This document shows, one piece after another, positions 34,392 through 64,000 of a DNA stretch of 64,000 nucleotides. This DNA is from an uncultured Geobacter sp. (GTDB lineage Bacteria; Myxococcota_A; UBA9160; JADFDR01). The notes beneath the pieces were generated by a model, which was not told the DNA's origin, searched no databases, and saw nothing but the letters and a program-made list of their open reading frames with translations. Position 1 is the first letter of the stretch. Each line of letters starts with the position of its first letter. Where the stretch lies: contig CAYRID010000002.1 in assembly GCA_964424225.1 (NCBI GenBank), forward strand, positions 2,254-66,253. The letters are read 5' to 3'. A program made the position numbers and the translations under genes.

Positions 34392-34468
34392 GGGCCCTTA
34401 GCTCAGTCGGTCAGAGCATCCGGCTCATAACCGGACAGTCCCAGGTTCAATCCCTGGAGGGCCCACCA
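34392..34468 (+). tRNA. tRNA with CAU anticodon (elongator type; resembles lysidine-modified tRNA-Ile2 more than tRNA-Met; not an initiator), CCA encoded
   Basis: The cloverleaf folds by hand: acceptor GGGCCCT/AGGGCCC, D arm GCTC/GAGC, anticodon arm TCCGG-CTCATAA-CCGGA, T arm CCAGG-TTCAATC-CCTGG, then ACCA. G1-C72 is paired and the anticodon stem lacks the 3 GC pairs of initiators. C4-G69 and C5-G68 match E. coli ileX as I recall it. Confidence 0.9.
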
Positions 34469-40151: not shown

Positions 40152-40259
40152 TGAGCACTCCCTGAAACGGTTCGCAAAAATTGAAAACTTTTTTGTGTAT
40201 AAAAATAGAAGGAGGCATTCGCGTCGTTGTGTCGCGAATGCCTCCATTTTAAGTTGCAA

Positions 40260-41663: not shown

Positions 41664-44024
41664 CTACTCAAAGAAAATTGAATCTCGGGTTTTCTTCGGT
41701 TCCTTGATGCGAGGAAAAGCGCCAAAACTGAGGTCACTGGCAGAACCTTGCAGCACGAGTTCAACGGGCAAAATAGATTCTCGACCACGTACAAGACCGT
41801 ATTTTTCACGCAGGCTAAGGAAGGCGAAGCTCGATCGTGCAGCGTGCCGTGGTGCATTTTCTGTGGCTACGCCGAGACGTGCACGTTCAAAGAAAAGATC
41901 GCGCTGTGCATCGGGCGCGTACTCGTAGTCACGATCCGTTAGCGTGAGTGCAAGAGATTGCTCTTCGAGTTGAGCCACGATCTTTGCAAGGCGCTCCGGA
42001 GAAATTGCTTGGCGTGCGGTGACGGGCGCCTTTTTCTTTTCGCCGCGTTCATTGAGGTAATGCACGGCGAGCACGGTGCCACCTTCAAACGTGACGCCTT
42101 GCGGATGCAACTCCCCATTATTGGGATTTCCGTCGAGAAGCTCCGGTCGAAGGCCAAGACCATTCGGGCCTGCGAATTCGGGATTTTCTTCGAGATATCC
42201 GCGCGAAACGCGAATGGCCTGCGGTGCGAGCTCGAGAACTTCCGCACGCACTTGCAGGCCTGCTTCGCGACCAGCTCGAGTTTTGGGATAGCGACGCACA
42301 ATTTCTTGGAGCATCGGAATGCGCACTTCGAGACGCGGTTGTTTTTGCGTTGCCTGCAAGGCTTGCTTCGCCGCTTTTTCTTCGAGGCGCAGCAATTTTT
42401 TTGAAGGCTTGACGTTTGTTGGTGTATGGCGATTTGCAATTTCATGCGCTGCAATCCAGTTGCCCCGCAGTTTTTCGTAGTCCTTCAGCCAGTTTTCGAC
42501 GGAGGAGATTTCTTTTCCGTCGGGGTAGCGCGTTCGGTAGAGGCCTGCGAAGTAATAAGGAGTGCGCCCAAAGGGCCACGGAGAAAGCCAGGGATAATGT
42601 AAAATTCGCTCGGGCATTCCGACGAGGACATCAGCGAAATAGGGAGCGTCGAGGATCCATTCCAGCATGCGCGGCAAGTCGCGATCTCTTGCACCCGAAG
42701 CGAGCGGCCCAAGTAAAATCCAGCGTGTTTGCAGCCAGCGATCGCTGCTGCGGGATCGCTTGAAAAAGGCAAATGGATTTTGGATGGGATTGTTGAGTAA
42801 CGCTTTAGAGTGTATAGTCATGTTTTCATTGCGATGACGTCGTTGCTCTGCTTGCTGCAAAATCTTCCAACTCGTCGTGTCGTTGCCGCGTTCCATCTCG
42901 CGCATGGCGAGTGCGAAACGAACTTCATCGGCCCATTGACTTTGCTCGCGCGGATCGTCGGTGCGCAGTTGTTGCACAATTGTGTCAGTCTCTGTATCGG
43001 AGCGCAGCAGCGCCACCGCCAGATGTTGCTCTGTCGCATCGGGTGTTGGCAGTTGATTCGGAGCTTCGAGGCTTCGCGCACGCTTTGCATTTTGCTCTTC
43101 GACTTGCTGTAAGGCCTTTTCCCCAAGCACTTGAGCTTTTGCGTCTTCAGGGCTTGTGCGCATCGCTTGCTCGGAAAAGGCAAGTGCAAGCTGTGGCTCG
43201 CCGCCGCGCAAGGCGCGGCGGGCTTTGCGCAGTAGCTGATCGCGGCGAGTTTTTTGCAACTCGATATTGGCCTCGTCAATTTTGCGCGCGAGTTCGGGAG
43301 CTTCGTCGCTGTCAGGATGGCGACGCAATTCTTCGCGCCAGTAGTACAGAGCCTGCCGCTCATAGATCGAAAAATCATCATCGAGATGTCGCGTTGATGT
43401 CCACTCGACGAGTGAGCGTACAAAACCCACGATGGGAGTGCCTCCCGATAGCATGCTGCGTCCGACGGGTTCGGCGAGCATATTGAATACTTGCCCAAAG
43501 GAGTGTTGATGATCATCGCGCATTCGCGCTTTGCTGAGCAGGAGAGGATCGTCGGCGACTTCATGTTCGAGCCGCGTGCGCAAGGGTTTTGGAAGATGGC
43601 CTTGTTTTAGGAGTGCACGCGTTGCGCTGCGATATTTGCGTGGATCCGCATGCATGGAGTCGACGAGATTTTGTGCGTAGGCCGAAAGATCGCTACTCGA
43701 TTTTGTGTTGGGCCACCAATTCATTTTTTTCTGTTGAAAAGTTGCGTTGCTTTGGGTTTCGATTTTGCGGAGTGAAACCAACAATTCTTCGGCTCGTGCA
43801 CGATCCTTCAAGAGCGCTGCAGAAAGTAAATCGCGCGTGGCCAAGTCGGTCTCGTCGGGCAGTCGTACGGGTTGAAGCGGTGCGGCCTCCAGCGGTGCAT
43901 AGGCGGGGATCGCGGTGGTGCGTGCGCACCCACTAACGGCACTCATCATCCCAAGATAGATCAACACAAAAAAGAGTCGTGTCCAATTTTTCTGTGTTGT
44001 AGTTTTAGGGCGTAAAGCGATCAC
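41664..44024 (-). CDS. Large hypothetical lipoprotein (786 aa), mostly helical
   Basis: Signal peptide plus lipobox (FFVLIYLGMMSAVSGC). Long, uninterrupted and co-directional with neighbours, with a 20-nt overlap with the upstream gene. No motif recognised. Confidence 0.55.
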   Translation of the reverse strand: MIALRPKTTTQKNWTRLFFVLIYLGMMSAVSGCARTTAIPAYAPLEAAPLQPVRLPDETDLATRDLLSAALLKDRARAEELLVSLRKIETQSNATFQQKKMNWWPNTKSSSDLSAYAQNLVDSMHADPRKYRSATRALLKQGHLPKPLRTRLEHEVADDPLLLSKARMRDDHQHSFGQVFNMLAEPVGRSMLSGGTPIVGFVRSLVEWTSTRHLDDDFSIYERQALYYWREELRRHPDSDEAPELARKIDEANIELQKTRRDQLLRKARRALRGGEPQLALAFSEQAMRTSPEDAKAQVLGEKALQQVEEQNAKRARSLEAPNQLPTPDATEQHLAVALLRSDTETDTIVQQLRTDDPREQSQWADEVRFALAMREMERGNDTTSWKILQQAEQRRHRNENMTIHSKALLNNPIQNPFAFFKRSRSSDRWLQTRWILLGPLASGARDRDLPRMLEWILDAPYFADVLVGMPERILHYPWLSPWPFGRTPYYFAGLYRTRYPDGKEISSVENWLKDYEKLRGNWIAAHEIANRHTPTNVKPSKKLLRLEEKAAKQALQATQKQPRLEVRIPMLQEIVRRYPKTRAGREAGLQVRAEVLELAPQAIRVSRGYLEENPEFAGPNGLGLRPELLDGNPNNGELHPQGVTFEGGTVLAVHYLNERGEKKKAPVTARQAISPERLAKIVAQLEEQSLALTLTDRDYEYAPDAQRDLFFERARLGVATENAPRHAARSSFAFLSLREKYGLVRGRESILPVELVLQGSASDLSFGAFPRIKEPKKTRDSIFFE

Positions 44025-47964: not shown

Positions 47965-48702
47965 GTGTCGGAGCAAGAAAAAATTCTTACGGGACGAACG
48001 GCGATCGTCACGGGAGCCGGGACGGGGATTGGCGCAGCGGTGTCCAAGGCTTTTGCGGCACAGGGTGCGCACGTTGTGCTCGTGGGGCGACGGCGTATGC
48101 CACTCAATCAGACCGCGAAAGAGATTCACGCTTGTGGCGGTGCTTGTGATGTAGTGCGCGCGGATGTCAGTGACCTCGGTGATGTGCGAAGTCTCTTTAA
48201 AGCAGCAAAGCGGCTCGGTACGGGGCGCGTTGACATCGTCGTGAACAATGCAGGAATTTTGGGGCCGCGTGCGCCGCTCGTGCGTTATCCGCTACGTGCT
48301 TGGGACGAAGTGATGCGTATCAACGCGCGCGGTGCTTTTTTGGTTTTGCAAGAGGCTTTGAAGGCCATGCAGCCCGGTGGTGGTTCAATCGTGAATGTGT
48401 CGTCGAGCGTGGGGCGCCGTGGCCGTGCCGAATGGGGTGCTTATTCAGCATCGAAGTTTGCGATCGAGGCACTCACGCAAATTGCGGCAGAAGAAAATCA
48501 AGGTACAGGAATTCGTGTCAATGCGGTAAATCCGGGAGCTACGCGTACGGCGATGCGGGCGCGGGCGTATCCAAAGGAAAATCCAGTTGCACTTCCGACT
48601 CCGGAAAGTGTTATTCCGGTTTTTTTGTTTCTGGCGAGTGATGAATCGAAAGAAATAAACGGGCAATCGCTTGCTGCGCGTGAGTTTGTTTGGCCAAAGT
48701 AG
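47965..48702 (+). CDS. Short-chain dehydrogenase/reductase (YciK-like)
   Basis: TAIVTGAGTGIGAAV, NNAG, and S...YSASK catalytic motifs. Confidence 0.75.
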   Translation: MSEQEKILTGRTAIVTGAGTGIGAAVSKAFAAQGAHVVLVGRRRMPLNQTAKEIHACGGACDVVRADVSDLGDVRSLFKAAKRLGTGRVDIVVNNAGILGPRAPLVRYPLRAWDEVMRINARGAFLVLQEALKAMQPGGGSIVNVSSSVGRRGRAEWGAYSASKFAIEALTQIAAEENQGTGIRVNAVNPGATRTAMRARAYPKENPVALPTPESVIPVFLFLASDESKEINGQSLAAREFVWPK

Positions 48703-48792
48703 CAGCGACATCCATTCGTGTTGGTTAGTCAGTTCGTGTGTTGTGTGGAAATGCGACTGAAAAAATGCAATGCAGCAAAAGTGGAGAAAAGA

Positions 48793-50532
48793 ATGAAATC
48801 GTTTTGGCGTGTTTTGATCATCTTGGGCTTGCTGCTACTTGGATGGAGCTGGCTTCGAATGCAGTCGCGTGTCGTTGTGGATCCCGGGTCGGTGTTGATC
48901 GTTGAGCTTGGCGGTGTGTACGTCGATGCGCCGGATCCCCCAGTGCTTGCACGTGTGCTGGGTCATGGCTTCGTACCGTTTGCACGCGTGCGCGATCTTT
49001 TTGTCAAGGCGGAGCGCGATTCGCGCATTGAGCGCGTCGTCGTCAAAATTACTCCTCTTGAAATTGGGTGGGCGAAGGCGCAAGAGCTGCGCACGCTCAT
49101 TACACTTCTTCGTGACGCCGGGAGGCATCCCGTTGCATATCTTGAAGTAGAGAGCTTTGGTTCGAACCTTGAATACTATGTGGCGTCGGCGGCAGAAGAA
49201 ATTTATGTCGCACCGGCGACGCGAATGCCTTTCCTTGGTTTGGCCTCGGAGTTTTTGTTTCTCGGTGGCTTGTGGGAAAAACTAGGTATCGAAGTTGAAG
49301 CCGAGCGAATTGGAGAGTACAAGACAGCGGTGGATTCTTTGACGGGCAAAAGTATGTCCGAGGCTCACCGCGAAGTCGCCAATGCAATTCTCGATTCGAT
49401 GGAAGAGCAATTTGTGCAGGCAATCTCGACGTCCAGAAGTGTTACACAAAACGATGTTCGTGATGCTATGCAAGAAGGTCTTGTGACGCTTTCTGCATTG
49501 CAAGAGCGGCATTTGATTGATGGCATTTTGTCTTTCGAGGCATTGCTTGAAAAGTATGGTCAAAATTTACAACAGCTTGAAGAGAGTCAGATCGTTTTTG
49601 ATCATGAATATGCGTCGGTGTCCGCGGAGGAAGTGGGTTGGAATCCGAAGGCGAAGTTTGCGCTGATTTACGCATCGGGCAATGTCGTAACGGGCGAAGC
49701 ACCCAATTCGCTTTCTGGCGAACCGGTGGCGGCGGCGGATACAATCGTCGAGGCGATTCAAGCTGCGGTTGAGGATTCCGAGATCAAAGCGATCGTGCTG
49801 CGCGTCGATAGTCCCGGCGGTTCTCCTCTTGCTTCGGATTTGATTTGGCAAGCGGTCGAGGCCGCGAAAAAAGCGGGCAAACCGGTTGTGGCTTCGTTCT
49901 CTGATCTCGCGGCTTCGGGCGGTTATTACTTGGCGTGCGGTGCCGATCGGATCGTGGTTGAACCCGGCACGTTGACCGGTTCCATCGGTGTTTTTGTCTT
50001 GCGTCCGGTGATTGCAGGCTTGCTCGACAAGCTTGGCATTGCTCACGAAACGCTAACGCGTGGTCAACACGCAGGAATGTTGCTTTCGACTCAAAAGCTT
50101 TCTCCGGCATCGCGTCATAAGCTACAAGAAGATGTGTCGAGTGTGTATGAACAATTTTTGGAGCGCGTAGCGAGTGGGCGCTCCATGTCGCCGCAAGCCG
50201 TCGATGTGCTCGCGCGCGGCCGAGTTTGGACGGGAGTGCAGGCTGTAGAAAAAGGACTTGCCGATCAAGTGGGAGGACTTCGCGAAGCGATGCGCGAAGC
50301 GAAGAAGCTTGCGTCGATTCCGGAGACCGATGACGTTTCGCTCGTGATTTATCCGCCGCACAAGCCGCTGTCCGTACAAATTGCAGAGGCGTTGAATGGT
50401 CAGATGGCGTTTGCTTCCCAGGCGGAGATTTTGCCGCTTCCGCCGCTTCTCAAGAAAGCTGCGCGAGCGGTCGAAACTTGGCCAGAGCCCACGCCGCTCC
50501 TTGTGCTGCCGTTCGTAATCGAAATTCGCTGA
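48793..50532 (+). CDS. sppA: Signal peptide peptidase SppA, 67K (two-domain) type
   Basis: N-terminal TM segment (FWRVLIILGLLLLGWSW). Two ClpP/crotonase-like halves, the second with VASFSDLAASGGYYLACGADRIV. ATG at 48793 follows GGAGAAAAGA. Confidence 0.85.
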   Translation: MKSFWRVLIILGLLLLGWSWLRMQSRVVVDPGSVLIVELGGVYVDAPDPPVLARVLGHGFVPFARVRDLFVKAERDSRIERVVVKITPLEIGWAKAQELRTLITLLRDAGRHPVAYLEVESFGSNLEYYVASAAEEIYVAPATRMPFLGLASEFLFLGGLWEKLGIEVEAERIGEYKTAVDSLTGKSMSEAHREVANAILDSMEEQFVQAISTSRSVTQNDVRDAMQEGLVTLSALQERHLIDGILSFEALLEKYGQNLQQLEESQIVFDHEYASVSAEEVGWNPKAKFALIYASGNVVTGEAPNSLSGEPVAAADTIVEAIQAAVEDSEIKAIVLRVDSPGGSPLASDLIWQAVEAAKKAGKPVVASFSDLAASGGYYLACGADRIVVEPGTLTGSIGVFVLRPVIAGLLDKLGIAHETLTRGQHAGMLLSTQKLSPASRHKLQEDVSSVYEQFLERVASGRSMSPQAVDVLARGRVWTGVQAVEKGLADQVGGLREAMREAKKLASIPETDDVSLVIYPPHKPLSVQIAEALNGQMAFASQAEILPLPPLLKKAARAVETWPEPTPLLVLPFVIEIR

Positions 50533-53465: not shown

Positions 53466-53488
53466 CGATTGCTTTGTGCAAGTTGAAA

Positions 53489-53522
53489 GGGGTGCTTCTT
53501 CGAAGCACCCCTTTTTCTTTTT
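53489..53522 (+). terminator. Rho-independent terminator after pal
   Basis: GGGGTGCTTC (53489-53498), loop TTC, GAAGCACCCC (53502-53511), then TTTTTCTTTTT. Confidence 0.85.
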
Positions 53523-53745
53523 CAGCTTTTGCCATTTTGCCCTCTACAATGCTTCGGCGTGTGTTTTTGCATATTTCGATTTGGCGTTCGCAAGGTTGCT
53601 GGCGCAAAACCGGTTATCTCAGTTTTTGCGAAGGGAAAACTGTCCTTTCAGGAAAGAAATTTCTTTGTCTAAGCCTTCCCTCAATCGTGAAACGATTTCC
53701 TTTGCGGACTTTGGTGCAAAGTGGAGTGTTGATCTCTTTGCGCTA

Positions 53746-56733
53746 ATGCTGTTTGTTGAACACATAGGGTCGCTCGCCGTGCTCGACTTTGAAACGACGG
53801 GCCTTGATCCGGCGCAGGGCGCTGAAATTCTCGAAATTGGCGCTGTCTTGCTTGATGCAAAAAGCACGCAGCTTACGACGGTGCATTCGCTAGTGCGGGT
53901 GCAAGGGGAAATTCCGCCGGGGATTACGCGCCTTACGGGGATTTGTCCGGACCACTTGCGCGAGGCACCGCGGATCGAGGAAGTGAAGCAAGAGATTGCA
54001 GATCTTTTACGCGGTCGCGTGATTCTTGCGCACAATGCCGAATTTGAGAAAAAGTTTTTGGGGCGGTGGATTGATTCTGATTTTCAATCCGACACTTTTT
54101 CGAGTAATAACGAAAAAATGCGTTATCTCGATACCCAAGATTTGCTTGCGGTGACTTATCCGGACACGCCAACGCTTCGGCTAGATTGGTTTACGGCGAA
54201 GTTACTTGGGCGCACCGAACAACACCGTGGCCTGGAAGATGCGATCGATACGCTTTGTGTACTGGCGCACATTGCTGAAGGCGCACACCGTGGAAGAGAA
54301 ACACGATACGGTGTTGTGCGAGAAGCGTTGCAAAATTATGCACCGCAGTCGCCATGGCTTGCATTGCTGGCCGACGCAAAGCTGCGCCTCGATTTTGCAT
54401 CGCATGCCGAGTTTATTGAAATTGATCCAACCAAAGAAGTGCCGGTGCCATTTGATGCGGATGCCATTGCAGCGGCGCTTCGCGACGTAGAGCGTGGTCG
54501 TCGTCACTTCGAGAACTATCAGTTTCGCGAAGGGCAAGTTGAGCTTGCACGCAAATTTGTGTTGGCTCTCTCGGGTGATAGCGAAGAAAAAATTACGCTT
54601 CTCGAGGGCGGTACGGGTATTGGGAAGTCCCTTGCCTATCTTGCAGCCGCCATTCCCTATGCGATGGAGACGGCGAAGTCTGGGGATCGCCGCCCCGTGG
54701 TGATTTCGACGCGTACGAAATTGCTCCAGGATCAGCTTCTTAAAAAAGATATTGCCGCCGCTGCACGCTTTTTGGGTTATCCCGATTTGCGCGCGATTGC
54801 CATGAAGGGTCGAGCCAACTATGCCTGCGCCCGACGTTTGCAGTCGGTGTTGGAGGAAGGTTGCGATCGTGGATCCGCTGCCGGCAAGCAAGGGCATCTA
54901 TTTTCCGACGAAGATATGGCATACGCCACGCTTTTTTCAGCGTCACAAATTCGCGTTTCGGGAGAACTTGGCAGTATTGCATCGGGCATTCGCCGTCGTT
55001 TCGTTCCGCTCTCAACTTTGTTGCGCCATTCGGTGTCCTATCGCTCCGATCAATGTACGCGCGAGCAATGCGCCGCGTCTTCGCCGTGTGCCTTTGGCAA
55101 GAAGCGTGCAGCACTTTCTCAGGCCCATTTGATCGTTGCGAATCATGATCTCTTGCTTCGCTGGCCTCCGGATTATCCCTCATTTACACATTTAATTGTC
55201 GATGAAGTGCATGAGCTTGCAGGTGTTGCTGACGAAGCGTATGCACAAGAAGTTGCGCCGGAAGCATTGCTCGATGATTTCGATGAAGCTTTTGGCAATT
55301 TGGGAAAAGGCAAGAAAACGCGTGCGCTCGTGACGAAGAAGCAATTGCAAGTGCTTGGTGAGGAGGAAGTCAGGCGCTGGCGCAGAGAGCTGGATCAAGA
55401 TTCAAAAGCATTGGGTCGGCTTCTGGGGGCGGCGAGCACGGGTTGCGCCGATGAATACGGAGGCGTTCCCGTCTCGGCGTTTCTTCGCCCGGTTGATCCG
55501 ACGGAAAAACGCACCCAGGAAGCGCAAGGAAGGGCTGTGCGTTTCCATAAAAATTTACCAAAGCTGCGAGAGCATGCGGAAATCTTGTCGGGTCGCTTGC
55601 AAAAAATCGCACAAGAATTAGATAAAATTTGCGAAAAAAATACGCAAGATGAGTGCGAGGTTACGACGCTCAATCGTGTCGTATCGAATTTCAAACAAGC
55701 TGCAGAAAATTTGAGTATTGCCTTTTTGGATTCAACACAAAATCATGTCATTTCCTTTGAAGACCTGCGATCTTCGTTCGATCGCTGGCGCTTAGTTTTG
55801 CGCCCTGTTCTACTTGAGGAGCGATTTCGGGAAGAACTTTTATCGAAGCTTGAGTGCTTTGTAGGTGTTTCGGCGAGTCTTTTCGTCGGTGCAAAACGTG
55901 CGAACGGAAATCAGGTCTTGGCACAACATAGTTTTGCCGCGCTCGGTGAAATTGGAATTAGCGCGCAAGAGGTGCAGGTTTTTGCGGTTCCAAGCCCTTT
56001 TCCGTATGTCGAGCAAATGCGTGTCGTCGCGCTCAGGCCCTCCGACGGCATACGCGATTTCTCAGTGCCTGACACCGCCAACGTGGTCAAGTCAAACTCT
56101 ACGCGCGGCTTTGTACAAAACGGTTTTTCCGGTGATGAACTGCTCAAGCGCGAAACGGTGGCGGTGCTTGCGGATCTCGCGCGTACCCTCGACGGCCGCA
56201 CACTGGGTTTGTTTACGAATCTAAAACGCATGAATGAAGTGGCCGATTTGCTCGCCGAAACACTTCGTGAGGATGGGATTGAGATTTTGACACCGCGCGC
56301 GGCGGGGGATGATCCGGCGCAGCTCGTCGAGCGTTTTCGCAAAGGCCGATGCGTACTTTTGGGTGCGCGTTCGTTTTGGCAAGGACTCGATATTGCGGGC
56401 GATGCCTTGCAAGCCGTAGTGATCGAGAAATATCCCTTCGAAGTTCCGACGGAGCTTCGCAAGCGCCGTGAAGCCAGACTAAAAGAGACGGGGATGAACA
56501 CTTTTGAGATCTACACACTGGCGAAGATGATGCTTTATCTCAAGCAGATGGTGGGGCGTTTGATTCGGAGCGAGAATGATCGCGGCATCGTCGTCATCGT
56601 CGAAGGACGTACCGACAAAGGTTATTTCAAAAAACTTGATCGCGCGCTGCCAGCGGGATCAAAAATTTGTGTTGCGCAGCGTTCGGAACTCGGGAAATTT
56701 TTGCGAGAATTAGGAATCGGCAAAAAGCAATGA
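53746..56733 (+). CDS. dinG: DinG-family ATP-dependent helicase with N-terminal DnaQ-like 3'-5' exonuclease domain
   Basis: Exo I LAVLDFETTGLDP, Exo II ILAHNAEFEKKFL, and HRGLEDA. The helicase has Walker A EGGTGIGKSLAYL, DEVH (LIVDEVHEL), and C-terminal QMVGRLIRSENDRG. ATG at 53746 was chosen because the listed ORF start would run across the pal terminator. Confidence 0.8.
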   Translation: MLFVEHIGSLAVLDFETTGLDPAQGAEILEIGAVLLDAKSTQLTTVHSLVRVQGEIPPGITRLTGICPDHLREAPRIEEVKQEIADLLRGRVILAHNAEFEKKFLGRWIDSDFQSDTFSSNNEKMRYLDTQDLLAVTYPDTPTLRLDWFTAKLLGRTEQHRGLEDAIDTLCVLAHIAEGAHRGRETRYGVVREALQNYAPQSPWLALLADAKLRLDFASHAEFIEIDPTKEVPVPFDADAIAAALRDVERGRRHFENYQFREGQVELARKFVLALSGDSEEKITLLEGGTGIGKSLAYLAAAIPYAMETAKSGDRRPVVISTRTKLLQDQLLKKDIAAAARFLGYPDLRAIAMKGRANYACARRLQSVLEEGCDRGSAAGKQGHLFSDEDMAYATLFSASQIRVSGELGSIASGIRRRFVPLSTLLRHSVSYRSDQCTREQCAASSPCAFGKKRAALSQAHLIVANHDLLLRWPPDYPSFTHLIVDEVHELAGVADEAYAQEVAPEALLDDFDEAFGNLGKGKKTRALVTKKQLQVLGEEEVRRWRRELDQDSKALGRLLGAASTGCADEYGGVPVSAFLRPVDPTEKRTQEAQGRAVRFHKNLPKLREHAEILSGRLQKIAQELDKICEKNTQDECEVTTLNRVVSNFKQAAENLSIAFLDSTQNHVISFEDLRSSFDRWRLVLRPVLLEERFREELLSKLECFVGVSASLFVGAKRANGNQVLAQHSFAALGEIGISAQEVQVFAVPSPFPYVEQMRVVALRPSDGIRDFSVPDTANVVKSNSTRGFVQNGFSGDELLKRETVAVLADLARTLDGRTLGLFTNLKRMNEVADLLAETLREDGIEILTPRAAGDDPAQLVERFRKGRCVLLGARSFWQGLDIAGDALQAVVIEKYPFEVPTELRKRREARLKETGMNTFEIYTLAKMMLYLKQMVGRLIRSENDRGIVVIVEGRTDKGYFKKLDRALPAGSKICVAQRSELGKFLRELGIGKKQ

Positions 56734-56795: not shown

Positions 56796-57569
56796 ATGGC
56801 AAGCTTGCAAGGCCGAAACATTATTGTGACAGGGGCCGGTTCGGGAATTGGCAAAGCCATTGCGCGGCGCTTGGTGCACGAAGGTGCGCGCGTTGGCCTG
56901 CTCGGGCGTACGCGTGCCAAAATCGAGCATCTCCAAACGAGTCTTGGCAGCCAAGCACTTGCGGTCGAGGCCGATGTGCGAAGCCGCGATTCGCTCGAAC
57001 GCGCTTTTCAGGTCGTGGCCAAGAAATTTGGCCCCCTGCATGCCGTGATCGCGAGCGCAGGCATTGCGGGCTCGAATACGTCGCAAGCACTGGTCGATCG
57101 TTGGGATGAGATCGTGCGCACGAATCTCGATGGCACGTATTTCACTTTTCGCGCTTTTGAAAAAATGATGGATCGTGCTGCGTCCGTGCGTCATGCGATT
57201 GCGATCTCGTCGTGCCTTGCGCGTTTTGGCGTGTCGGGCGGCACGGCTTATTGTGCAAGCAAGGCGGGAGTCCTCGGGCTTGTGCGCGCTTTTGCGGTGG
57301 AGTGGGCTTCGCGGCAGCCGGTTTTGGTGAATGCGATTTGCCCAAGCTGGGTTGAAACGCCGATGATGGAGCATCGCATGCAAGAGATTGCCCAAGAGAC
57401 GAGCCAGTCCGTTTCGCAGACGATGCAAGAAATGGTGGATCAGACTCCCTTGCAGCGCATGACGGACCCCGATGAGATTGCCGATTTGGTGTTTTTCCTC
57501 CTCTCGCCGGGTGGACGTTCTTTTACGGGGCAAAGTTTCGATCCAAATAATGGAGTTTGGATGGGTTGA
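56796..57569 (+). CDS. Classical short-chain dehydrogenase/reductase
   Basis: IIVTGAGSGIGKAIA, a mid-region ASAG (variant of NNAG), and S...YCASK. Confidence 0.75.
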   Translation: MASLQGRNIIVTGAGSGIGKAIARRLVHEGARVGLLGRTRAKIEHLQTSLGSQALAVEADVRSRDSLERAFQVVAKKFGPLHAVIASAGIAGSNTSQALVDRWDEIVRTNLDGTYFTFRAFEKMMDRAASVRHAIAISSCLARFGVSGGTAYCASKAGVLGLVRAFAVEWASRQPVLVNAICPSWVETPMMEHRMQEIAQETSQSVSQTMQEMVDQTPLQRMTDPDEIADLVFFLLSPGGRSFTGQSFDPNNGVWMG

Positions 57570-57719
57570 GCGGCGTCGATTTGCACTTCCGCAATGGACT
57601 GAAATCGCGCCAAAGTTTTGCCCCCGCGCACTTGGATTCGTATACTCGCGACGCTTTTCTGCGGGCTTGGCGGTTTTTCAGAATTTCATTCGCAGTTTTT
57701 CGCGAAAAAGGAGAGATGA

Positions 57720-58667
57720 GTGGAGCGTGAATTCTCCAGGGATGCATGGGCTTTGATTCTTGGTGGCTCAAGTGGGTTTGGTTTGGCAACGGCTCAAAAA
57801 CTTGCCGCGCATGGAATGAACATCATTGCTGTGCATCGTGATCGACGCGGAGCCATGAAGAATATTGATCCGGAGTTTGACAAGATTCGCGCATCCGGCG
57901 TGCAGCTTCTTACTTTCAATGTTGATGCGCTCGATGCGTCGGTGCGCGCCGAGACGCTCGATGAAATTGCAAAGGCGCTTGGCGCCGGCGGCAAGATTCG
58001 CGTGCTTCTGCACTCCATTGCGTTTGGAAATCTCAAACTCATCGTGCCGGAAAAAGCAGCGGATCATTCTGCGATCAGCGCGCTGGCCAAGGCGCTTGGC
58101 CAAGATGCGCAAAGTTTGCAAGCCACCGTCGATCAACTCTTCGAACAAGGCCTCGATCACCTTGAAGGCATCGCTTCGGCGCCGCAGTACTCCAATGAAG
58201 TTTTCATCGACGAAGAAGATCTCGCACGCACGATCCATAGCATGGGGACGAGTCTTCTTGGTTGGACGCAAGAGATTCATCGCCGCGGTTTGTTTGCCAG
58301 TGATGCGCGGACCTTTGGGCTCACGAGCGAAGGCAATACGGTGGCGTGGAAGGGTTATGCGGCGGTGGCGGCGGCCAAAGTCGCGCTCGAATCGATTGCG
58401 CGCGCGATTGCGGTCGAATTTGCGCCGTACGGCCTGCGCTGCAACGTGATCCAAGCTGGTGTCACCGATACGCCCGCTTTGCGCTTGATCCCGGGTAGTT
58501 TGCAACTCAAGGCGAACGCGCGCTCGCGAAATCCGATGAAACGGCTCACGACACCGCAAGATGTTGCGGGCGTGATTTATCTTTTGGCAAAAGACGAAGC
58601 CGCTTGGATCAACGGCGAAGTGATTCGTGTCGACGGTGGAGAGCATATTTCGGGAGTAACACATTAA
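57720..58667 (+). CDS. Atypical SDR, enoyl-(ACP/CoA) reductase-like
   Basis: GTG at 57720 follows AAGGAG. The Gly motif ALILGGSSGFGLA is reminiscent of FabV/TER-type G(A/C)S(S/N)GYGLA. YAAVAAAK gives the Y-x6-K spacing used by FabI/FabL enoyl reductases. It is about 60 aa longer than classical SDRs. Confidence 0.55.
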   Translation: MEREFSRDAWALILGGSSGFGLATAQKLAAHGMNIIAVHRDRRGAMKNIDPEFDKIRASGVQLLTFNVDALDASVRAETLDEIAKALGAGGKIRVLLHSIAFGNLKLIVPEKAADHSAISALAKALGQDAQSLQATVDQLFEQGLDHLEGIASAPQYSNEVFIDEEDLARTIHSMGTSLLGWTQEIHRRGLFASDARTFGLTSEGNTVAWKGYAAVAAAKVALESIARAIAVEFAPYGLRCNVIQAGVTDTPALRLIPGSLQLKANARSRNPMKRLTTPQDVAGVIYLLAKDEAAWINGEVIRVDGGEHISGVTH

Positions 58668-59659
58668 TGTTGGAACTCCATGGTCTTGGCCATTTCCATC
58701 CCACGAACGAGATTACGAATCAGTTTCTTGAGGATCTCGATATTGGCACCAATGAGAAGTGGATCATGGAGCGCGTCGGGATTCGCTCGCGACGCACCGC
58801 GATGTCGCTCGATTACATTCGCACAACACGCAATCAGGATTTTCGTGCAGCGCTTGAGGCAACGGAATTTACGAATGCGTATGCCGGTGCGCGTGCGGCG
58901 GAGATGGCGATTGCCCGCGCAGGCATTGCAAAACAAGACATCGGACTCGTGATTGCCGGAACTTCGGCGGCAGACACCATGTCTCCGGCGGAAGCTTGCA
59001 ATGTGGCCCGCGAGCTTAACCTCGATGTGCCGGGCTTCGATATTAACTCGGCGTGTACGAGTTTTTATGCGGGAATGTATGCACTGAGTTTGATGCAACC
59101 GGACAAACTTCCGGCGTATGTGCTCTTGGTGACACCGGAACGTTTAACTACAACCGTCAACTACAACGATCGTTCTTCGGCGGTGCTTTGGGGGGATGCG
59201 GCGACGGCGGCTATCCTTTCGACCCAAGTGAAAGGTCGGGTGCAAGTTCTTGGCAACCGTCTGGAATCCAATCCGGCGGGCTCGGACAAAGTCGTCGTGC
59301 CGCGCGATGGTTTCTTTCACCAAGAAGGTCGCACGGTGCAGATGTTTGCGATCAAGAAGACGATACGCATGCTCGGACAGTTGCGTGACGAGTTCAGCGA
59401 CGGTGAGCGCACTTTGCATTTCGTCGGGCATCAAGCCAATTTGCGCATGCTTGAATCGGTTTGCCAGCAAATGAAGATCCCTCCCGAGCGTCATCACTAC
59501 AATGTCGATCGGTTTGGCAATACGGCATCGGCGGGTGCACCGTCGGTGATTTCGATGCTTTGGGATCAATGGACCGCGCACGACGATATTGCAGCGGCCG
59601 GTGTGGGTTCGGGTCTGACTTGGGGCGGTTTGTTGTTGCGTTTTCGAGGTGAAGCATGA
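58667..59659 (+). CDS. fabH: 3-oxoacyl-ACP synthase III (FabH-like)
   Basis: Cys in DINSACTSF, His in FVGHQAN, and Asn in FGNTASAG. The ATG shares an A with the preceding TAA. Confidence 0.8.
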   Translation: MLELHGLGHFHPTNEITNQFLEDLDIGTNEKWIMERVGIRSRRTAMSLDYIRTTRNQDFRAALEATEFTNAYAGARAAEMAIARAGIAKQDIGLVIAGTSAADTMSPAEACNVARELNLDVPGFDINSACTSFYAGMYALSLMQPDKLPAYVLLVTPERLTTTVNYNDRSSAVLWGDAATAAILSTQVKGRVQVLGNRLESNPAGSDKVVVPRDGFFHQEGRTVQMFAIKKTIRMLGQLRDEFSDGERTLHFVGHQANLRMLESVCQQMKIPPERHHYNVDRFGNTASAGAPSVISMLWDQWTAHDDIAAAGVGSGLTWGGLLLRFRGEA

Positions 59660-60252
59660 AGTACGAAGAATATCGTGCGCGAAACCATTTCACGCGTGAG
59701 GAAATTCTTGCGTTTGGACATGGCCGGTTGATCGAAGACGCACCGCCGGATTTTAAGACGAGGCTACCCGTGCCGCCGATGTTGATGCTTGATCGCGTGA
59801 CGCAAATCGAACGCAACAAACACCGCGGCAAGATCGTTGCGGAGCGCGATGTGCGTCTCGACGATTGGTTTTTCCAGTGTCACTTCCTCGGTGATCCGGT
59901 GCAGCCGGGCTGCCTTGGTGTCGACGCGATTTGGCAGATGATTGGGTTTTATTGCGCGTGGAACGGTGGTCTTGGTACCGGGCGCGCACTGGGTTGTGGC
60001 GAAGTTGAGTTCATGGGGCAGATTCGTCCGCGCGACGCAGTTGTGCGTTATGAGGTCGATATCGTGCGCTATGTCGATTTGCCGGCATCGGGTTCGTCGA
60101 TTGGTATCGGGGATGGTCGCGTGCTCGTGGACGATGAAGAGATTTATTTGGTCAAGCGTGCCAAGGTCGGAATTTTTCGCGATATCGATTATGCGGATTA
60201 TCCGTATCCCTCTGCGTTTTCGCGCGGCGGGAAAATGGACAAGAGCGAGTAA
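59656..60252 (+). CDS. fabA: 3-hydroxyacyl-ACP dehydratase / trans-2-cis-3-decenoyl-ACP isomerase family (FabA)
   Basis: LPVPPMLMLDRV...DDWFFQCHFLGDPVQPGCLGVDAIWQMIGFY...GRALGCGEVEFMGQIRP aligns almost motif for motif with E. coli FabA, including the catalytic His and Asp contexts. Confidence 0.9.
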   Translation: MKYEEYRARNHFTREEILAFGHGRLIEDAPPDFKTRLPVPPMLMLDRVTQIERNKHRGKIVAERDVRLDDWFFQCHFLGDPVQPGCLGVDAIWQMIGFYCAWNGGLGTGRALGCGEVEFMGQIRPRDAVVRYEVDIVRYVDLPASGSSIGIGDGRVLVDDEEIYLVKRAKVGIFRDIDYADYPYPSAFSRGGKMDKSE

Positions 60253-60417
60253 GTCGAACGGACTTGTTGGTCTTGCATGAAAATTCTCATGCGATTCGAA
60301 CGACTCCGAAGGGTGTCGCTCGAGTTCGAGCGAGGAGAATTTTGTGTACTGCAAACAAGAACGGGATTTGAATTGATTACGGCAAATCATGTGATGTGAG
60401 AAAGGGGCAAAAGAAGG

Positions 60418-61158
60418 ATGAGTGAAGAAGCGAATCACAAAAAATTCGCCCTCGTAACGGGCGGTGGCACGGGGATCGGCAGTGCCATTTGTCGTACGCT
60501 CGCAGCGAGCGGCTTTCGCGTGGCTGTGCATTATCGCTCAAGCGAAGCAGGAGCCAAGGCGCTGGCGGAGTCGCTGCCCGATGCGCTGACGATTCGTGCC
60601 GATATTTCAAATCCCGCTGAGATCGACAATATGATTGCCGAGTTGAAGGAGCACACGGAACACGTCGATGTGTTGGTGAACAACGCCGGCTACAACGTGA
60701 ACGCGCCGGTGATTCGTATGACACTCGAAGACTTCGATGCAGTGATGGGCGTCGAGCGCGGCACTTGGTATCTCACGAAGCTGATCTTGCGCCGCTTCAT
60801 GATGCGCAAGAACTCGGGTCGCATCATTAACATCTCAAGCGTGGTGGGGCACACCGGCAATCTTGGTCAAATGCCGTACACGATGGCCAAGGCTGGCATC
60901 GAGGCGATGACGAAGTCGCTCGCCAAGGAAGTGATGGATCGCGGAATTCTCGTCAATTCGATTGCTCCTGGTTTCATCGAGACAGAGATGACGAAGGTGC
61001 TCGCACCGGAAGTCCAGTCTGGAATTCTTGCGCAGATTCCACTGGGCCGGATGGGAAAGCCAGAAGAGGTAGCCGACGTCGTCGACTTTTTGGCGACGCG
61101 GGCAAGCTACATCACAGGCACGGTGATCCACGTTAACGGCGGCATGTACGGAGGCTGA
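60418..61158 (+). CDS. fabG: 3-oxoacyl-ACP reductase (FabG-like SDR)
   Basis: ALVTGGGTGIGSAI, LVNNAG, ISSVVG...YTMAKAG, and a C-terminal VNGGMY. Confidence 0.85.
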   Translation: MSEEANHKKFALVTGGGTGIGSAICRTLAASGFRVAVHYRSSEAGAKALAESLPDALTIRADISNPAEIDNMIAELKEHTEHVDVLVNNAGYNVNAPVIRMTLEDFDAVMGVERGTWYLTKLILRRFMMRKNSGRIINISSVVGHTGNLGQMPYTMAKAGIEAMTKSLAKEVMDRGILVNSIAPGFIETEMTKVLAPEVQSGILAQIPLGRMGKPEEVADVVDFLATRASYITGTVIHVNGGMYGG

Positions 61159-61163
61159 TCGCA

Positions 61164-61625
61164 ATGTCGGGGAAGGAACTAAGTCCAAAAGAAATTCTGG
61201 CGCTTTTGCCGCAGCAAGAACCATTTCGTTTTGTCGATGAGATTTTAGAAGTCGATGACGAGCATATCGTTGCAGCTTTTCGTTTTCGCCCGGAGATGGA
61301 TTTTTATCGCGGACATTTTCCAGGAAATCCTGTGACGCCTGGCGTCATTTTGATCGAGTCGATGGCGCAGGTCGGCGTGGTGGCCTTGGGCATTTATTTG
61401 CTTGGCAAAGAGTTGCCGCCCGAGGAGTTAAAAAAAATCGTGACTGTTTTCACCGATACGACGATGGAATTTACGGGAATGGTGAAACCCAAGGACCGCG
61501 TCATCATTACTGGCCGCAAACAGTTTTTCCGACGTCGAAAGCTGCGTTCAGAGGTTGAAATGCGTCTCGAAGATGGCAAAGTCGTTGCGTCGGGAACGGT
61601 TTCGGGAATGGGGATTGTGCAATGA
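61164..61625 (+). CDS. Hotdog-fold 3-hydroxyacyl-ACP dehydratase (FabZ-like)
   Basis: LPQQEPFRFVDEILEV...YRGHFPGNPVTPGVILIESMAQ (FabZ-type His and Glu contexts). Confidence 0.75.
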   Translation: MSGKELSPKEILALLPQQEPFRFVDEILEVDDEHIVAAFRFRPEMDFYRGHFPGNPVTPGVILIESMAQVGVVALGIYLLGKELPPEELKKIVTVFTDTTMEFTGMVKPKDRVIITGRKQFFRRRKLRSEVEMRLEDGKVVASGTVSGMGIVQ

Positions 61626-62899
61626 AACGGCGAGTCGTAATCACCGGGCTCGGAGTGGTCGCGCCGAATGCAAACGGCTTGCACAATTTCGAAGCTGCAT
61701 TACGCAAAGGCGTGTCAGGCATTCGCTTTCAGCCGAAATTGAAAGAGCTTGGGTTTGGTTGCCAAGTGGCGGGTGTTCCTCAGGGCATTGATGAGCTTGC
61801 ACCCACATATTTTGGCGAAGATGAACTTCTGGCGATGAATACGAGTCACCGTTTTGGTTGCATTGCGGCCGTCGATGCTTGGACGGATGCGGGTTTCGTG
61901 CGTCCGACACGAGAAAGTGACATCGTCGATTGGAGTGCGGGAGCGATTATTGGTACGGGCGTTGGTGGGCTCGATACTGCCGGCGAGAAGGTGATTCCGT
62001 ATACGGACGCGGGCAAAGTGCGTAGGCTCGGTAGCACTTCCGTCGAGCAAGTCATGGGGAGCGGTGTTTCAGCACGCGTGGCCGGGCTGCTCGCGCTTGG
62101 CAATCAAGTGACGAGCAATTCGAGTGCGTGCAGCACAGGTACCGAGGCGTTGGTCGAGGGGTATTATCGGATTCGCACGGGACTTGCCGAACGGATGCTT
62201 TGCGGTGGGAGTGAAGGTGCAAGTCACTATATTTGGGCGGGCTTCGATGCGATGCGCGTATTGTCACGCACCTTTAATGATGTGCCAGAGAAAGCTTCGC
62301 GCCCGATGAGTGCTTCGGCGGCAGGTTTTGTGCCTGGCTCGGGTGCGGGCGTACTTATGCTCGAAAGTTTGGAAAGTGCGCAGGCACGCGGAGCTCGAAT
62401 TTATGCAGAATTGCTCGGTGGCTTTCTTAATTGCGGTGGGCATCGCATGGGTGGCAGCATGACGGCGCCCAACCCGGTGAGTGTGCAGCGCTGCATCCAA
62501 GGTGCGCTTGCCGACGCGGGTTTGCGTTCGGAAGAAATCGATGCCATCGATGGGCATCTTACAGCGACTGGAGCAGACCCCAAGGAAGTTGCATCGTGGG
62601 CGAAGGCCCTCAATTGTACGCCGGAAAACTTCCCGGTGATTACGTCGACGAAATCCATGATTGGGCATGGTCTTGGTGCAGCCGGTGCGATTGAATCTGT
62701 CGCGACGGTATTGATGCTGCATGGTGGATTTGTGCATCCTTCGATCAATTGCGAAGATGTGCACCCGGAGATTGCGCCGTACGCAGCTTCGATTCCGCAT
62801 ACGCTGCGCGAGATGCCGAATCTTCGCATCATGATCAAAGCAGGGTTTGGTTTCGGGGATGTAAATTCCTGCGCTGTGTTCAAGAAATGGGAAGCCTGA
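61622..62899 (+). CDS. Beta-ketoacyl-ACP synthase I/II family (FabB/FabF-like)
   Basis: RVVITGLGVVAPNANG, active-site Cys in NSSACSTGTEAL, His in IDGHLTATG, and His in STKSMIGHGLGAAG. ATGA overlap with the dehydratase gene. Confidence 0.85.
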   Translation: MKRRVVITGLGVVAPNANGLHNFEAALRKGVSGIRFQPKLKELGFGCQVAGVPQGIDELAPTYFGEDELLAMNTSHRFGCIAAVDAWTDAGFVRPTRESDIVDWSAGAIIGTGVGGLDTAGEKVIPYTDAGKVRRLGSTSVEQVMGSGVSARVAGLLALGNQVTSNSSACSTGTEALVEGYYRIRTGLAERMLCGGSEGASHYIWAGFDAMRVLSRTFNDVPEKASRPMSASAAGFVPGSGAGVLMLESLESAQARGARIYAELLGGFLNCGGHRMGGSMTAPNPVSVQRCIQGALADAGLRSEEIDAIDGHLTATGADPKEVASWAKALNCTPENFPVITSTKSMIGHGLGAAGAIESVATVLMLHGGFVHPSINCEDVHPEIAPYAASIPHTLREMPNLRIMIKAGFGFGDVNSCAVFKKWEA

Positions 62900-63012
62900 G
62901 AAAACGCGCGTGTGCTTAGCGCGTTCGTAGCGAATGATCGCTGAATAACCGAAAAAAGTGTAAGAGAAGTTTTTGTAGCAGAAAAAGTCCAAAGGACACA
63001 AAGGAGACAGAA

Positions 63013-63261
63013 ATGGGTCAACAGGAGATTTTTAACAAGGTCGTCGAGATCTTGAAGCCTTATGCCAAGAATGAAGAAGCGCTCGCTTCGGTTTCGTTGC
63101 AAACGAATATCTTGGAAGATTTGAAAGTAAATTCGGCACGACTCGTCGATGTGGTGCTTGCGTTCGAAGATGCCTTCGATATCGAAATCGACGATGCGGA
63201 TGCCGATGCGGTGAATACCGTCGGTGATGCGGTGCGTTTGATTAGTGAAAAGGTTGGGTGA
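63013..63261 (+). CDS. Acyl carrier protein, atypical around the phosphopantetheine site
   Basis: 82 aa, acidic, with the helix pattern of ACPs. The putative attachment Ser lies in LEDLKVNSARLVDVVLAFEDAF rather than the housekeeping DLGxDSLD context. AAAGGAG RBS. Confidence 0.75.
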   Translation: MGQQEIFNKVVEILKPYAKNEEALASVSLQTNILEDLKVNSARLVDVVLAFEDAFDIEIDDADADAVNTVGDAVRLISEKVG

Positions 63262-63277
63262 GAAAGCACGCGCTGCC

Positions 63278-64000
63278 GTGACTGATCTTGCTTTTCGGAG
63301 CCGAACCGCACTTTACGTGCAGCGTGAGATTGGTCGGTTGCTCGGGCCGCTCTGGATTCCTGCGCTCGTTTCGATTATGCGCCTCAAGTTTCGCTGGAAG
63401 ATCAAGAACCGGCGTGAACTGAGGCGCAAGTTTCGTGAAATGGTGCGTGAGGAAAAGCGTCCCATTCTCATTTGCGCAAACCATCTTACGATGGTGGATT
63501 CGTTCTTGATTGCTTGGGCGATTGCACCGACGTGGTGGTACGTCCTGAATTTCTCGAAGCTCGCTTGGAATTTGCCAGAGCGACGCAATTTTGCGTCGAA
63601 TCCCGTGAACAGTTTTCTGGTTTATCTCATGAAGTGTTTGCCGGTAGTGCGTGGTGGTGCACGCGCGGATATTTCTGAAGTGTTGCGGCGTGTGATTTTC
63701 TTGCTTTCCCGCGGTGAGGTCGTGCTGATTTTTCCGGAAGGCGGGCGTAGCCGCACAGGGCGCGTTGAAGTGGAATCGGCGGCATACGGGGTCGGTCGCA
63801 TCGTGAATGCGGTGCCAGGTTGCCGTGTGCTTTGTGTGTATTTGCGTGGTGATCACCAGGAGAAACATTCGGATTATCCGATCGTTGGTGAAGAGTTCGA
63901 TGTAGTGTTGTCCTGGATTGAGCCGAAGACCGACAAAAAAGGTTTGCGTGCCACAGTAGAGATTTCGCAGCAAATTTTGGGGCATATCGCCGAGATGGAA
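63278..64000 (+). CDS. PlsC/LPLAT-family acyltransferase, 3' end beyond window (not in the ORF track)
   Basis: Hand translation of frame 2 gives VTDLAFRS...KRPILICANHLTMVDSFL (H-x4-D) ...VVLIFPEGGRSRTG... and is open to base 64000. There is an in-frame stop at 63239-63241. Possible starts are GTG 63245, TTG 63254 and GTG 63278. Confidence 0.75.
   Translation, partial: MTDLAFRSRTALYVQREIGRLLGPLWIPALVSIMRLKFRWKIKNRRELRRKFREMVREEKRPILICANHLTMVDSFLIAWAIAPTWWYVLNFSKLAWNLPERRNFASNPVNSFLVYLMKCLPVVRGGARADISEVLRRVIFLLSRGEVVLIFPEGGRSRTGRVEVESAAYGVGRIVNAVPGCRVLCVYLRGDHQEKHSDYPIVGEEFDVVLSWIEPKTDKKGLRATVEISQQILGHIAEME

Follow-up and report, generated by a model that had tools for sequence, protein, structure and literature searches.

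The 3' end of the 64-kb window analysed here (the whole stretch of 64,000 nucleotides, from contig CAYRID010000002.1 of an uncultured Myxococcota_A bacterium) carries a run of genes for a type II fatty acid synthase (FAS II) which we favour reading as an accessory operon, one that would make a special acyl chain and hand it to a glycerolipid. An open reading frame (ORF) listing of the window placed nine genes on the + strand from 56796 to 64000, as an earlier note made from the bare sequence had claimed, and the overlaps it had pointed out were exact (TAATG at 58665-58669, ATGA at 59656-59659, and ATGA at 61622-61625). Pfam and NCBIfam hidden Markov model searches upheld the family call of all nine proteins. 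The core of the claim also stood: an acyl carrier protein (ACP) and an acyltransferase with the PlsC/GPAT fold (GPAT, glycerol-3-phosphate acyltransferase) belong to a co-transcribed-looking FAS II-like module, whose gene content and order both differ from the canonical plsX-fabH-fabD-fabG-acpP-fabF layout. Taking the window together with a nearly identical contig that runs past its end, the full operon in this lineage has eleven genes, and it is real, tightly packed and strongly conserved.

The dedicated carrier, an 82-residue ACP (63013..63261, +; PF00550), fell under every NCBIfam ACP cut-off (best score 58.3 against 66), with 47.9 bits against a cut-off of 70.45 for the AcpP model TIGR00517, and it was 37% identical to E. 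coli AcpP over 52 residues and 37-46% identical to AcpPs generally. The sequence DLGADSLDTVE of AcpP is replaced in it by DLKVNSARLVD, in which Asn and Arg take the places of two Asp residues of AcpP, one just ahead of the Ser and one two positions behind it. This motif was identical in 70 of the 79 ACP orthologs, and its VNSARLVD core in 78 of the 79. The altered positions lie in the acidic helix II of E. coli AcpP, recognised by AcpS and the Fab enzymes; an altered recognition helix fits the private phosphopantetheinyl transferase (PPTase) that is conserved along with the carrier, and we infer from the motif that this ACP would be orthogonal to AcpP. The elongating beta-ketoacyl-ACP synthase (KAS; KAS I/II-type, 425 residues, 61622..62899, +; PF00109 and PF02801, Cys-His-His triad) scored 281.6 against a cut-off of 493.75 for FabF (TIGR03150) and 242 against 630 for FabB (NF005935), and in PDB comparisons it was equally distant from FabF and FabB structures. 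It has clade-specific HLTAT and GFGFGD variants, its motifs were kept in 80 of 80 sequences, and judged by the NCBIfam cut-offs it appears to be a distinct clade, neither FabB nor FabF. The ACP and KAS both scored under the NCBIfam cut-offs for housekeeping enzymes and the ACP has a non-AcpP motif, which counts in favour of the accessory cluster that the note had proposed.

The remaining enzymes of the cycle are encoded around these two. Upstream lies a 315-residue short-chain dehydrogenase/reductase (SDR) resembling enoyl-ACP reductases (ER; 57720..58667, +; PF13561 and PF12241), with a GGSSGFG loop that was invariant and a Y-x6-K pair, the enoyl-reductase spacing rather than YxxxK, that was kept in 59 of 59 orthologs; it scored 34.4 bits against PF12241 (the FabV/TER 'Enoyl_reductase' model, cut-off 22.1), its best NCBIfam match was FabL (112 bits, cut-off 328), and among its PDB sequence matches B. 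subtilis FabL (3oic) ranked second, a glucose/ribitol dehydrogenase (2hq1) being first. The start of the next gene, which overlaps the ER stop by one base, belongs to a 330-residue FabH-like KAS III (58667..59659, +; PF08545 and PF08541) whose best PDB matches were Aquifex FabH and V. cholerae FabH2; it scored 199.5 against a cut-off of 249 for NF006829 and 154.5 against 292.1 for FabH (TIGR00747), and the motifs of its Cys-His-Asn triad were kept in 71 orthologs. A 198-residue FabA-type 3-hydroxyacyl-ACP dehydratase/isomerase follows (59656..60252, +), the only one of the nine proteins to pass an equivalog cut-off (NF003509, 211.9 bits against 124); E. coli FabA could be aligned to the whole of it, and it has both catalytic residues, His in CHF and Asp in GVDA, which were kept in 74 orthologs. 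Next are a 246-residue FabG-like 3-oxoacyl-ACP reductase (60418..61158, +), which scored 266 against 297.75 for TIGR01830 and 223.4 against 222 for NF009466, and a 153-residue FabZ-like dehydratase (DH2; 61164..61625, +; PF07977, His/Glu pair), which scored 72 bits against a FabZ cut-off of 113 (NF000582). The PDB matches of DH2 were FabZ proteins, the anammox FabZ among them; its GHFPG and xxExxAQ motifs were kept in 78 orthologs, and this FabZ type carries precomputed ApeI-/ApeP-like Pfam matches. Taken together, the KAS, KAS III, DH2, ER and ACP all scored below the NCBIfam housekeeping equivalog cut-offs, and FabA above.

The acyltransferase, of the fold shared by lysophospholipid acyltransferases (LPLAT) and GPAT (63245..64000, +, ending 27 nt past the window; PF01553), carries HLTMVD (within CANHLTMVD) and FPEGGRS, and its HX4D motif was conserved among orthologs. 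Possible starts are GTG 63245, TTG 63254 and GTG 63278, and on the overlapping contig its full length is 260 residues. No solved structure was detectable for it by sequence search; an AF2 model (pLDDT 86.8) had human GPAT1 (8e4y, E 1e-5) as its sole significant PDB match. Among 1.84 billion representative proteins it had 588 relatives at E<=1e-3 and 108 at E<=1e-30, a number small enough to point to a narrow subfamily remote from the bulk of PlsC, so that by its sequence the enzyme appears to be a small isolated branch of PF01553 and not an ordinary PlsC. The predicted GPAT-like fold speaks for glycerol-3-phosphate or a lyso-glycerolipid as the acceptor.

Genes beyond the window edge

The KAS of the window was encoded identically on an 87-kb Logan contig (L001), on which the cluster proteins were 98-100% identical to those of the window. 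There a gene for a 217-residue Sfp-type PPTase (PF01648) overlaps the end of the acyltransferase gene and is itself overlapped by the gene for a 1876-residue single-chain acetyl-CoA carboxylase (ACC; L001:13043-18673), which starts ~670 nt past the window end; MoaA, FolB and sulfite reductase genes, unrelated to the operon, come after it. The lack of acc in the cluster, as first described, was therefore an artefact of the window edge, seen once this ~99% identical contig supplied the ACC gene after that for the PPTase, and the cluster is self-contained to a greater degree than had been claimed. The identical KAS was found on contigs (L001-L006) from seven sequencing runs (SRR19071534, SRR12234141/43/44/45 and SRR17578869), with a 94% variant elsewhere, which suggests that the organism recurs across samples; in the genome collection, no relative came closer to it than 79% (KAS) and 60% (ACC) identity.

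Pfam assigned biotin carboxylase (BC), biotin carboxyl carrier protein (BCCP) and carboxyltransferase (CT) domains to the ACC, in the order BC-BCCP-central-CT. Among PDB matches to its CT half, the CT domains of eukaryotic ACCs (Chaetomium, yeast and human) outranked any bacterial beta subunit. The stretch of 700 residues that separates BCCP from CT matched PF08326 (ACC_central) weakly in the query itself, and this match was precomputed in many ACC orthologs. An AlphaFold model of the central region, for which a 92%-identical ortholog and 9 homologs were used, had a pLDDT of 81, and its top 31 matches were all eukaryotic ACC structures (E down to 6e-21), including the isolated yeast central domain 5i6e; the model folds as the yeast and human AC1-AC5. 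A hidden FabD/MAT domain in this 700-residue middle was ruled out, the region being an ACC central domain. By the domain matches and the model, the carboxylase has the architecture of a eukaryote-type multidomain ACC, with BC, BCCP, central and CT domains in one chain, and orthologs 57-60% identical to it were present in metagenome-assembled genomes (MAGs) of Myxococcota, 'Deltaproteobacteria' and Binatia.

Distribution and variants of the operon

We scanned one genome per GTDB species with clade-specific KAS peptides (GFGFGDVN and RMLCGG[STA]EG), which gave at least 538 confirmed KAS relatives, and surveyed synteny in the best 80 of these loci by tblastn with eleven operon proteins. All 80 came from MAGs, of Gemmatimonadota (mostly Longimicrobiales), Myxococcota/'Deltaproteobacteria', the acidobacterial classes Vicinamibacteria and Thermoanaerobaculia, and Binatia. 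The neighbourhood was conserved across relatives, with one gene order, ER-KASIII-FabA-(FabG)-DH2-KAS-ACP-AT-PPT-(ACC), where AT is the acyltransferase and PPT the PPTase, in all 80 loci and at least four phylum-level groups. Common to every locus not cut by a contig end was KASIII-DH2-KAS-ACP-AT, usually with PPT next, and all surveyed loci had a single KAS plus one KAS III. Gemmatimonadota loci were without FabG and ACC, Vicinamibacteria loci had FabG and no ACC, one Myxococcota/Binatia type had ACC and no FabG, and the type of the window had both and lay between an upstream DnaQ-DinG gene and a downstream FolB gene. FabG was found in the delta/Myxococcota type A and Vicinamibacteria loci. 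The combination of FabA, FabH and an enoyl reductase, which the note had singled out, was present in the window and was not universal: a variant on a 5.83-Mb contig (L089:130-15589) reads SDR-ER-KASIII-FabG-DH2-KAS-ACP-AT-PPT-ACC, without FabA, another (L090:5023-15643) reads KASIII-FabA-DH2-KAS-ACP-AT-PPT-ACC, without ER or FabG, and the ER was absent from L044, L057, L060 and L069 as well. Beyond the operon the genes varied by lineage, and no further family was conserved across lineages. As the note had claimed, fabD was absent, here from the window and from ~10-kb flanks of ~90 loci; as to plsX, no PlsX domain occurred in the gene tables of the Pfam-annotated loci, the other genome loci and the rest of the window not having been searched for it.

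The first of the nine genes, for a classical SDR of 257 residues (56796..57569, +; YxxxK; Pfam adh_short/adh_short_C2), had been counted as a cluster member and proved peripheral. It was absent from 80 of 80 related genome loci, and an ortholog at the same position (53% identical) was found only in L089, the gene being otherwise confined to the window lineage; it is a lineage-specific neighbour and not a core member of the operon.

KAS relatives numbered in the thousands, the best 120 being 74-100% identical, and the few with a source name were all labelled MAGs. The KAS of the window was 70-79% identical to orthologs in four phyla, and KAS identity was 68-75% between phyla against 73-79% within them. 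One MAG, OFTM107, had two divergent copies of the operon (L048, JAJDAN010000028.1, and L077, JAJDAN010000030.1; KAS 74%, ACP 81.5% and AT 60% identical), which are either paralogous modules or the sign of a mixed bin. There were no cultured carriers among the top matches for KAS, acyltransferase or ACC. A plasmid or mobile element was rejected as the carrier of the operon: none of 72,556 plasmids had a KAS relative above 60% identity, there was no tRNA, the gene calls of the annotated loci had no integrase or transposase Pfam match, and those neighbours that were annotated were core-chromosome genes. Those in the window include iPGM, RNase E/G, Rho, HisD, DnaG-RpoD, SppA, ThiI, Pal and DinG. 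Promoter and terminator scans of the operon gaps gave nothing above shuffles, repeats there were at chance level only, and an Rfam scan for regulatory RNA had tRNA-Met at 34392 as its sole match.

Directly upstream of the operon is a gene for a 1085-residue fusion of a DnaQ-like exonuclease (RNase_T) with a DinG-type helicase (53476-56733, +). Such a gene (41-47% identity) also precedes the operon in ~10 delta/Myxococcota-type loci, which places the window organism in that lineage; the GC of the window (0.54) is far under the 0.66-0.72 of the delta/Myxococcota-type loci. A further FabG-like SDR in the window (47965-48702, +), 33% identical to the cluster FabG, immediately precedes a gene for an SppA-type signal peptide peptidase (48718-50532). 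Elsewhere, a 786-residue ORF (41664-44024, -) had no Pfam match at E<=1e-5; the gene beside it (36822-40259, -) encodes a 1145-residue protein with a subtilase domain at its C terminus.

Accessory or housekeeping synthase

We consider it probable (roughly 0.6) that the operon encodes an accessory, orthogonal FAS II for a special, probably cis-unsaturated acyl chain that is handed to a glycerolipid; that it is accessory and orthogonal to AcpP, and that it yields a cis-unsaturated product for such an acceptor, are all points that we infer from the genes. In such a pathway, malonyl-CoA would be made by the eukaryote-type single-chain ACC in the Myxococcota/Binatia variants, and the dedicated ACP would presumably receive malonyl groups through the host FabD, since no FabD was ever clustered. 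The Sfp-type PPTase of the cluster would activate this ACP, with its Asn-Ser-Ala-Arg in place of the Asp-Ser-Leu-Asp of AcpP. The KAS III would prime with acyl-CoA and the KAS elongate; FabG, or that of the host, would reduce and the FabZ-like enzyme dehydrate, with FabA dehydrating and isomerising at one chain length to leave a cis double bond and the Y-x6-K reductase saturating the remaining cycles. Once finished, the chain would be taken from the ACP by the acyltransferase of GPAT/PlsC fold, with glycerol-3-phosphate or a lyso-glycerolipid as acceptor.

Several observations favour an accessory role. The ACP is divergent, invariant and has a PPTase of its own, and most components failed the housekeeping cut-offs. 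The lack of FabD in every variant, and of FabG and ACC in Gemmatimonadota, suggests a module that depends on host enzymes (FabD everywhere, FabG and ACC in Gemmatimonadota). The ER or FabA has been lost in some variants, one MAG has two divergent copies, which counts here if the bin is clean, and the KAS is nearly as similar between phyla as within them.

We also weighed whether this might be the main housekeeping FAS in an unusual all-in-one operon, with only FabD and PlsX/Y encoded elsewhere and with the only PPTase and only ACC of the cell. The evidence that suggests this is at the same time what weighs against an accessory synthase. In the window lineage the operon holds every FAS II function except FabD. 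Its surroundings are a stable core-chromosome context, with DinG upstream and FolB downstream (a synteny that is stable in ~10 related genomes) and dnaG-rpoD 25 kb away, and the GC of the operon region is not anomalous in the window, which fits a housekeeping locus too. The separate canonical fab/acpP locus that an accessory role calls for elsewhere in the genome is assumed; no canonical fab gene was found in the 64-kb window or in 1.3 Mb of locus flanks, as is expected by chance in samples so small. In Saccharopolyspora an ACC of the same type is an essential housekeeping enzyme (PMC6491548). Bearing on the product rather than on the role, the absence of FabA from L089 and of the ER from several loci means that a cis-unsaturated, otherwise saturated chain cannot hold for the whole family, and sequence leaves the chain length, primer and acceptor unfixed.

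Against a housekeeping role stand the failure of the ACP, KAS, KAS III, FabZ-like enzyme and ER to reach the NCBIfam housekeeping cut-offs, and an ACP helix altered at two Asp positions (to Asn and to Arg) invariantly across phyla. A main synthase also sits poorly with the Gemmatimonadota operon, which is without FabG and ACC, with the other variants without ER or FabA, with the MAG that has two divergent copies, and with a cross-phylum identity that is unusually flat and high. Polyangiaceae and Sandaracinaceae, families with cultured relatives, are known to have canonical FAS II, and we counted this against a housekeeping role as well. We therefore regard that role as unlikely, and continue to favour an accessory synthase.

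The two kinds of dehydratase raise another alternative, a type II 'secondary lipid' or polyene synthase in which enoyl reduction is skipped and a polyunsaturated chain is anchored on a lipid by the acyltransferase. One dehydratase is of the FabA type and the other of the FabZ type with ApeI-/ApeP-like Pfam matches, the ER is optional in some variants, and the dedicated ACP, Sfp-type PPTase (as PfaE) and LPLAT (as ApeD) have counterparts in such systems, the AGPAT domain of myxobacterial Pfa3 being a further LPLAT parallel. However, the Y-x6-K ER is intact in most variants, there is no chain-length-factor partner ketosynthase and no second ACP, and the proteins are all discrete and not of the Pfa multidomain type. 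Within ~10 kb of the operon in ~90 loci, no AMP-ligase, thioesterase, glycosyltransferase, LolA/MMPL exporter or methyltransferase was conserved. We thus hold a polyene synthase to be improbable.

Genes past position 64000 bear on a third possibility, that the product is a special acyl chain, very long or otherwise unusual, destined for lipid A or for a lipid of the outer membrane, as with the rhizobial acpXL-lpxXL genes. The earlier note had proposed to look there for lpxXL-like genes and for aryl-polyene hallmarks, and of these none of the AMP-ligase, thioesterase, glycosyltransferase and LolA/MMPL families proved to be conserved. An LpxL/HtrB-family lipid A acyltransferase gene (HFGSWE; PF03279 in L089) did lie a few genes downstream, after FolB, in some delta-type loci (L018:~19100-20028, L089:19937-20905 and 7 others); it was not found in L001 or in the Gemmatimonadota or Acidobacteriota loci, and its recurrence may be mere lineage synteny. 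Its presence in 8-9 delta-type loci, and the dedicated ACP, FabZ-like and KAS genes, which acpXL clusters have as well, are what speak for a lipid A substituent. Set against this, the acyltransferase within the operon belongs to PF01553, with a GPAT-like fold, and not to PF03279, unrelated genes separate the LpxL-like gene from the operon where it occurs, L001 and two whole groups of loci are without it, and there is one KAS and not two; a role in lipid A seems to us very improbable.

A stronger form of the accessory synthase, a dissociated counterpart of 'secondary lipid' synthases in which the charge-altered ACP and its PPTase are insulated from AcpP metabolism, fed by the ACC in some lineages, and used to put a so far unassigned, (poly)unsaturated or otherwise unusual chain into membrane lipids through a private GPAT-like enzyme, is improbable in all its parts at once; if true, the operon would be the source of an environmental lipid class in many uncultured soil and marine bacteria. 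If the synthase is accessory at all, few uncharacterised operons for lipid biosynthesis would be as widespread in uncultured Gemmatimonadota, Myxococcota, Acidobacteriota and Binatia; what it makes could account for orphan membrane lipids or biomarkers, and its ACP, PPTase, KAS and acyltransferase would offer, as a naturally insulated set, an orthogonal FAS ready for use in engineering. Should these organisms have no other FAS, the operon is merely an unusual housekeeping layout.

Comparison with known systems

A full-text literature search found neither the operon nor its product described, NCBIfam has a dedicated model for none of its components, and source annotations were generic. The operon is thus apparently uncharacterised, and accessory type II synthases with a carrier and an acyltransferase of their own are a known theme; the features that stand out are a true FabA outside the Proteobacteria, the altered ACP helix with its own PPTase, and the eukaryote-type ACC. 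Like E. coli FAS II with its FabA/FabB branch, the operon combines FabH priming, a KAS, FabG, FabZ together with FabA, and a Y-x6-K SDR enoyl reductase. Unlike E. coli FAS II it has a non-AcpP carrier, its own Sfp-type PPTase and acyltransferase, and no FabD, and unlike the FabA/FabB pathway it has no FabB (KAS I) partner, its one KAS being neither FabB nor FabF by the NCBIfam cut-offs. The FabA/FabB system is one of alpha- and gamma-proteobacteria, whereas this operon is in MAGs of Gemmatimonadota, Myxococcota, Acidobacteriota and Binatia.

As the note had claimed, neither the acpXL/lpxXL nor the aryl-polyene clusters are matched, their defining genes being missing. In the rhizobial acpXL-fabZXL-fabF2XL-fabF1XL-lpxXL cluster, too, an ACP, a dehydratase, a KAS and an acyltransferase are dedicated to an accessory FAS II; that cluster has an LpxL-family acyltransferase and two synthases (FabF1XL and FabF2XL) where the operon has a PF01553 acyltransferase and one KAS, and the operon adds a KAS III, FabA, ER and PPTase, with ACC in some lineages. 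With the aryl-polyene, flexirubin and xanthomonadin clusters (ApeC-R) it shares a dedicated ACP, FabZ-like dehydratases, a ketoreductase and an enzyme of the lysophospholipid-acyltransferase family, but it has an enoyl reductase and a true FabA and no ketosynthase-chain-length-factor pair. We rejected an aryl-polyene or flexirubin cluster, as no AMP-ligase, thioesterase, glycosyltransferase or LolA/MMPL gene was conserved in the flanks of the 80 loci or in the Pfam-annotated loci. Ladderane clusters of anammox bacteria have radical-SAM and desaturase-like genes with amxACP and amxFabZ and no FabA, Kuenenia being without FabA (PMC2649909), and a ladderane-type cluster was rejected in view of the FabA and of the lack of a radical-SAM gene in the operon (the MoaA downstream belongs to molybdenum-cofactor biosynthesis). 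Clusters that antiSMASH calls 'ladderane-like', of unknown function, are reported from Myxococcota and other phyla (PMC9902471). A polyunsaturated fatty acid synthase (pfaABCDE), with its large multidomain PfaA/B/C, tandem ACPs and FabK-type ER, was also rejected, the enzymes of the operon being discrete and single-domain and its ER an SDR.

Mycobacterial FAS-II (fabD-acpM-kasA-kasB-accD6, with FabH, MabA, InhA and HadABC) is a second elongation system that depends on an ACP, as the operon would be. It resembles the operon in its special ACP and KAS, in a FabH through which acyl-CoA primers enter, in its SDR enoyl reductase, and in having a carboxylase component encoded with it. The operon differs from it in having FabA/FabZ-type dehydratases instead of the MaoC-type Had proteins, no FabD, no C-terminal extension as in AcpM, and a single-chain eukaryote-type ACC instead of AccD6. 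For that ACC the one precedent described in bacteria is the eukaryote-type multidomain SACE_4237 of Saccharopolyspora erythraea (PMC6491548, Livieri et al. 2019), likewise a single ~200 kDa chain of BC-BCCP-central-CT; the ACC of the operon, known here from sequence, differs from it in lying directly after the PPTase gene of a FAS operon, in MAGs of Myxococcota, 'Deltaproteobacteria' and Binatia, and it would extend the central-domain-bearing, eukaryote-type ACC from actinobacteria to Myxococcota and Binatia, which bears on the origin of the eukaryotic enzyme.

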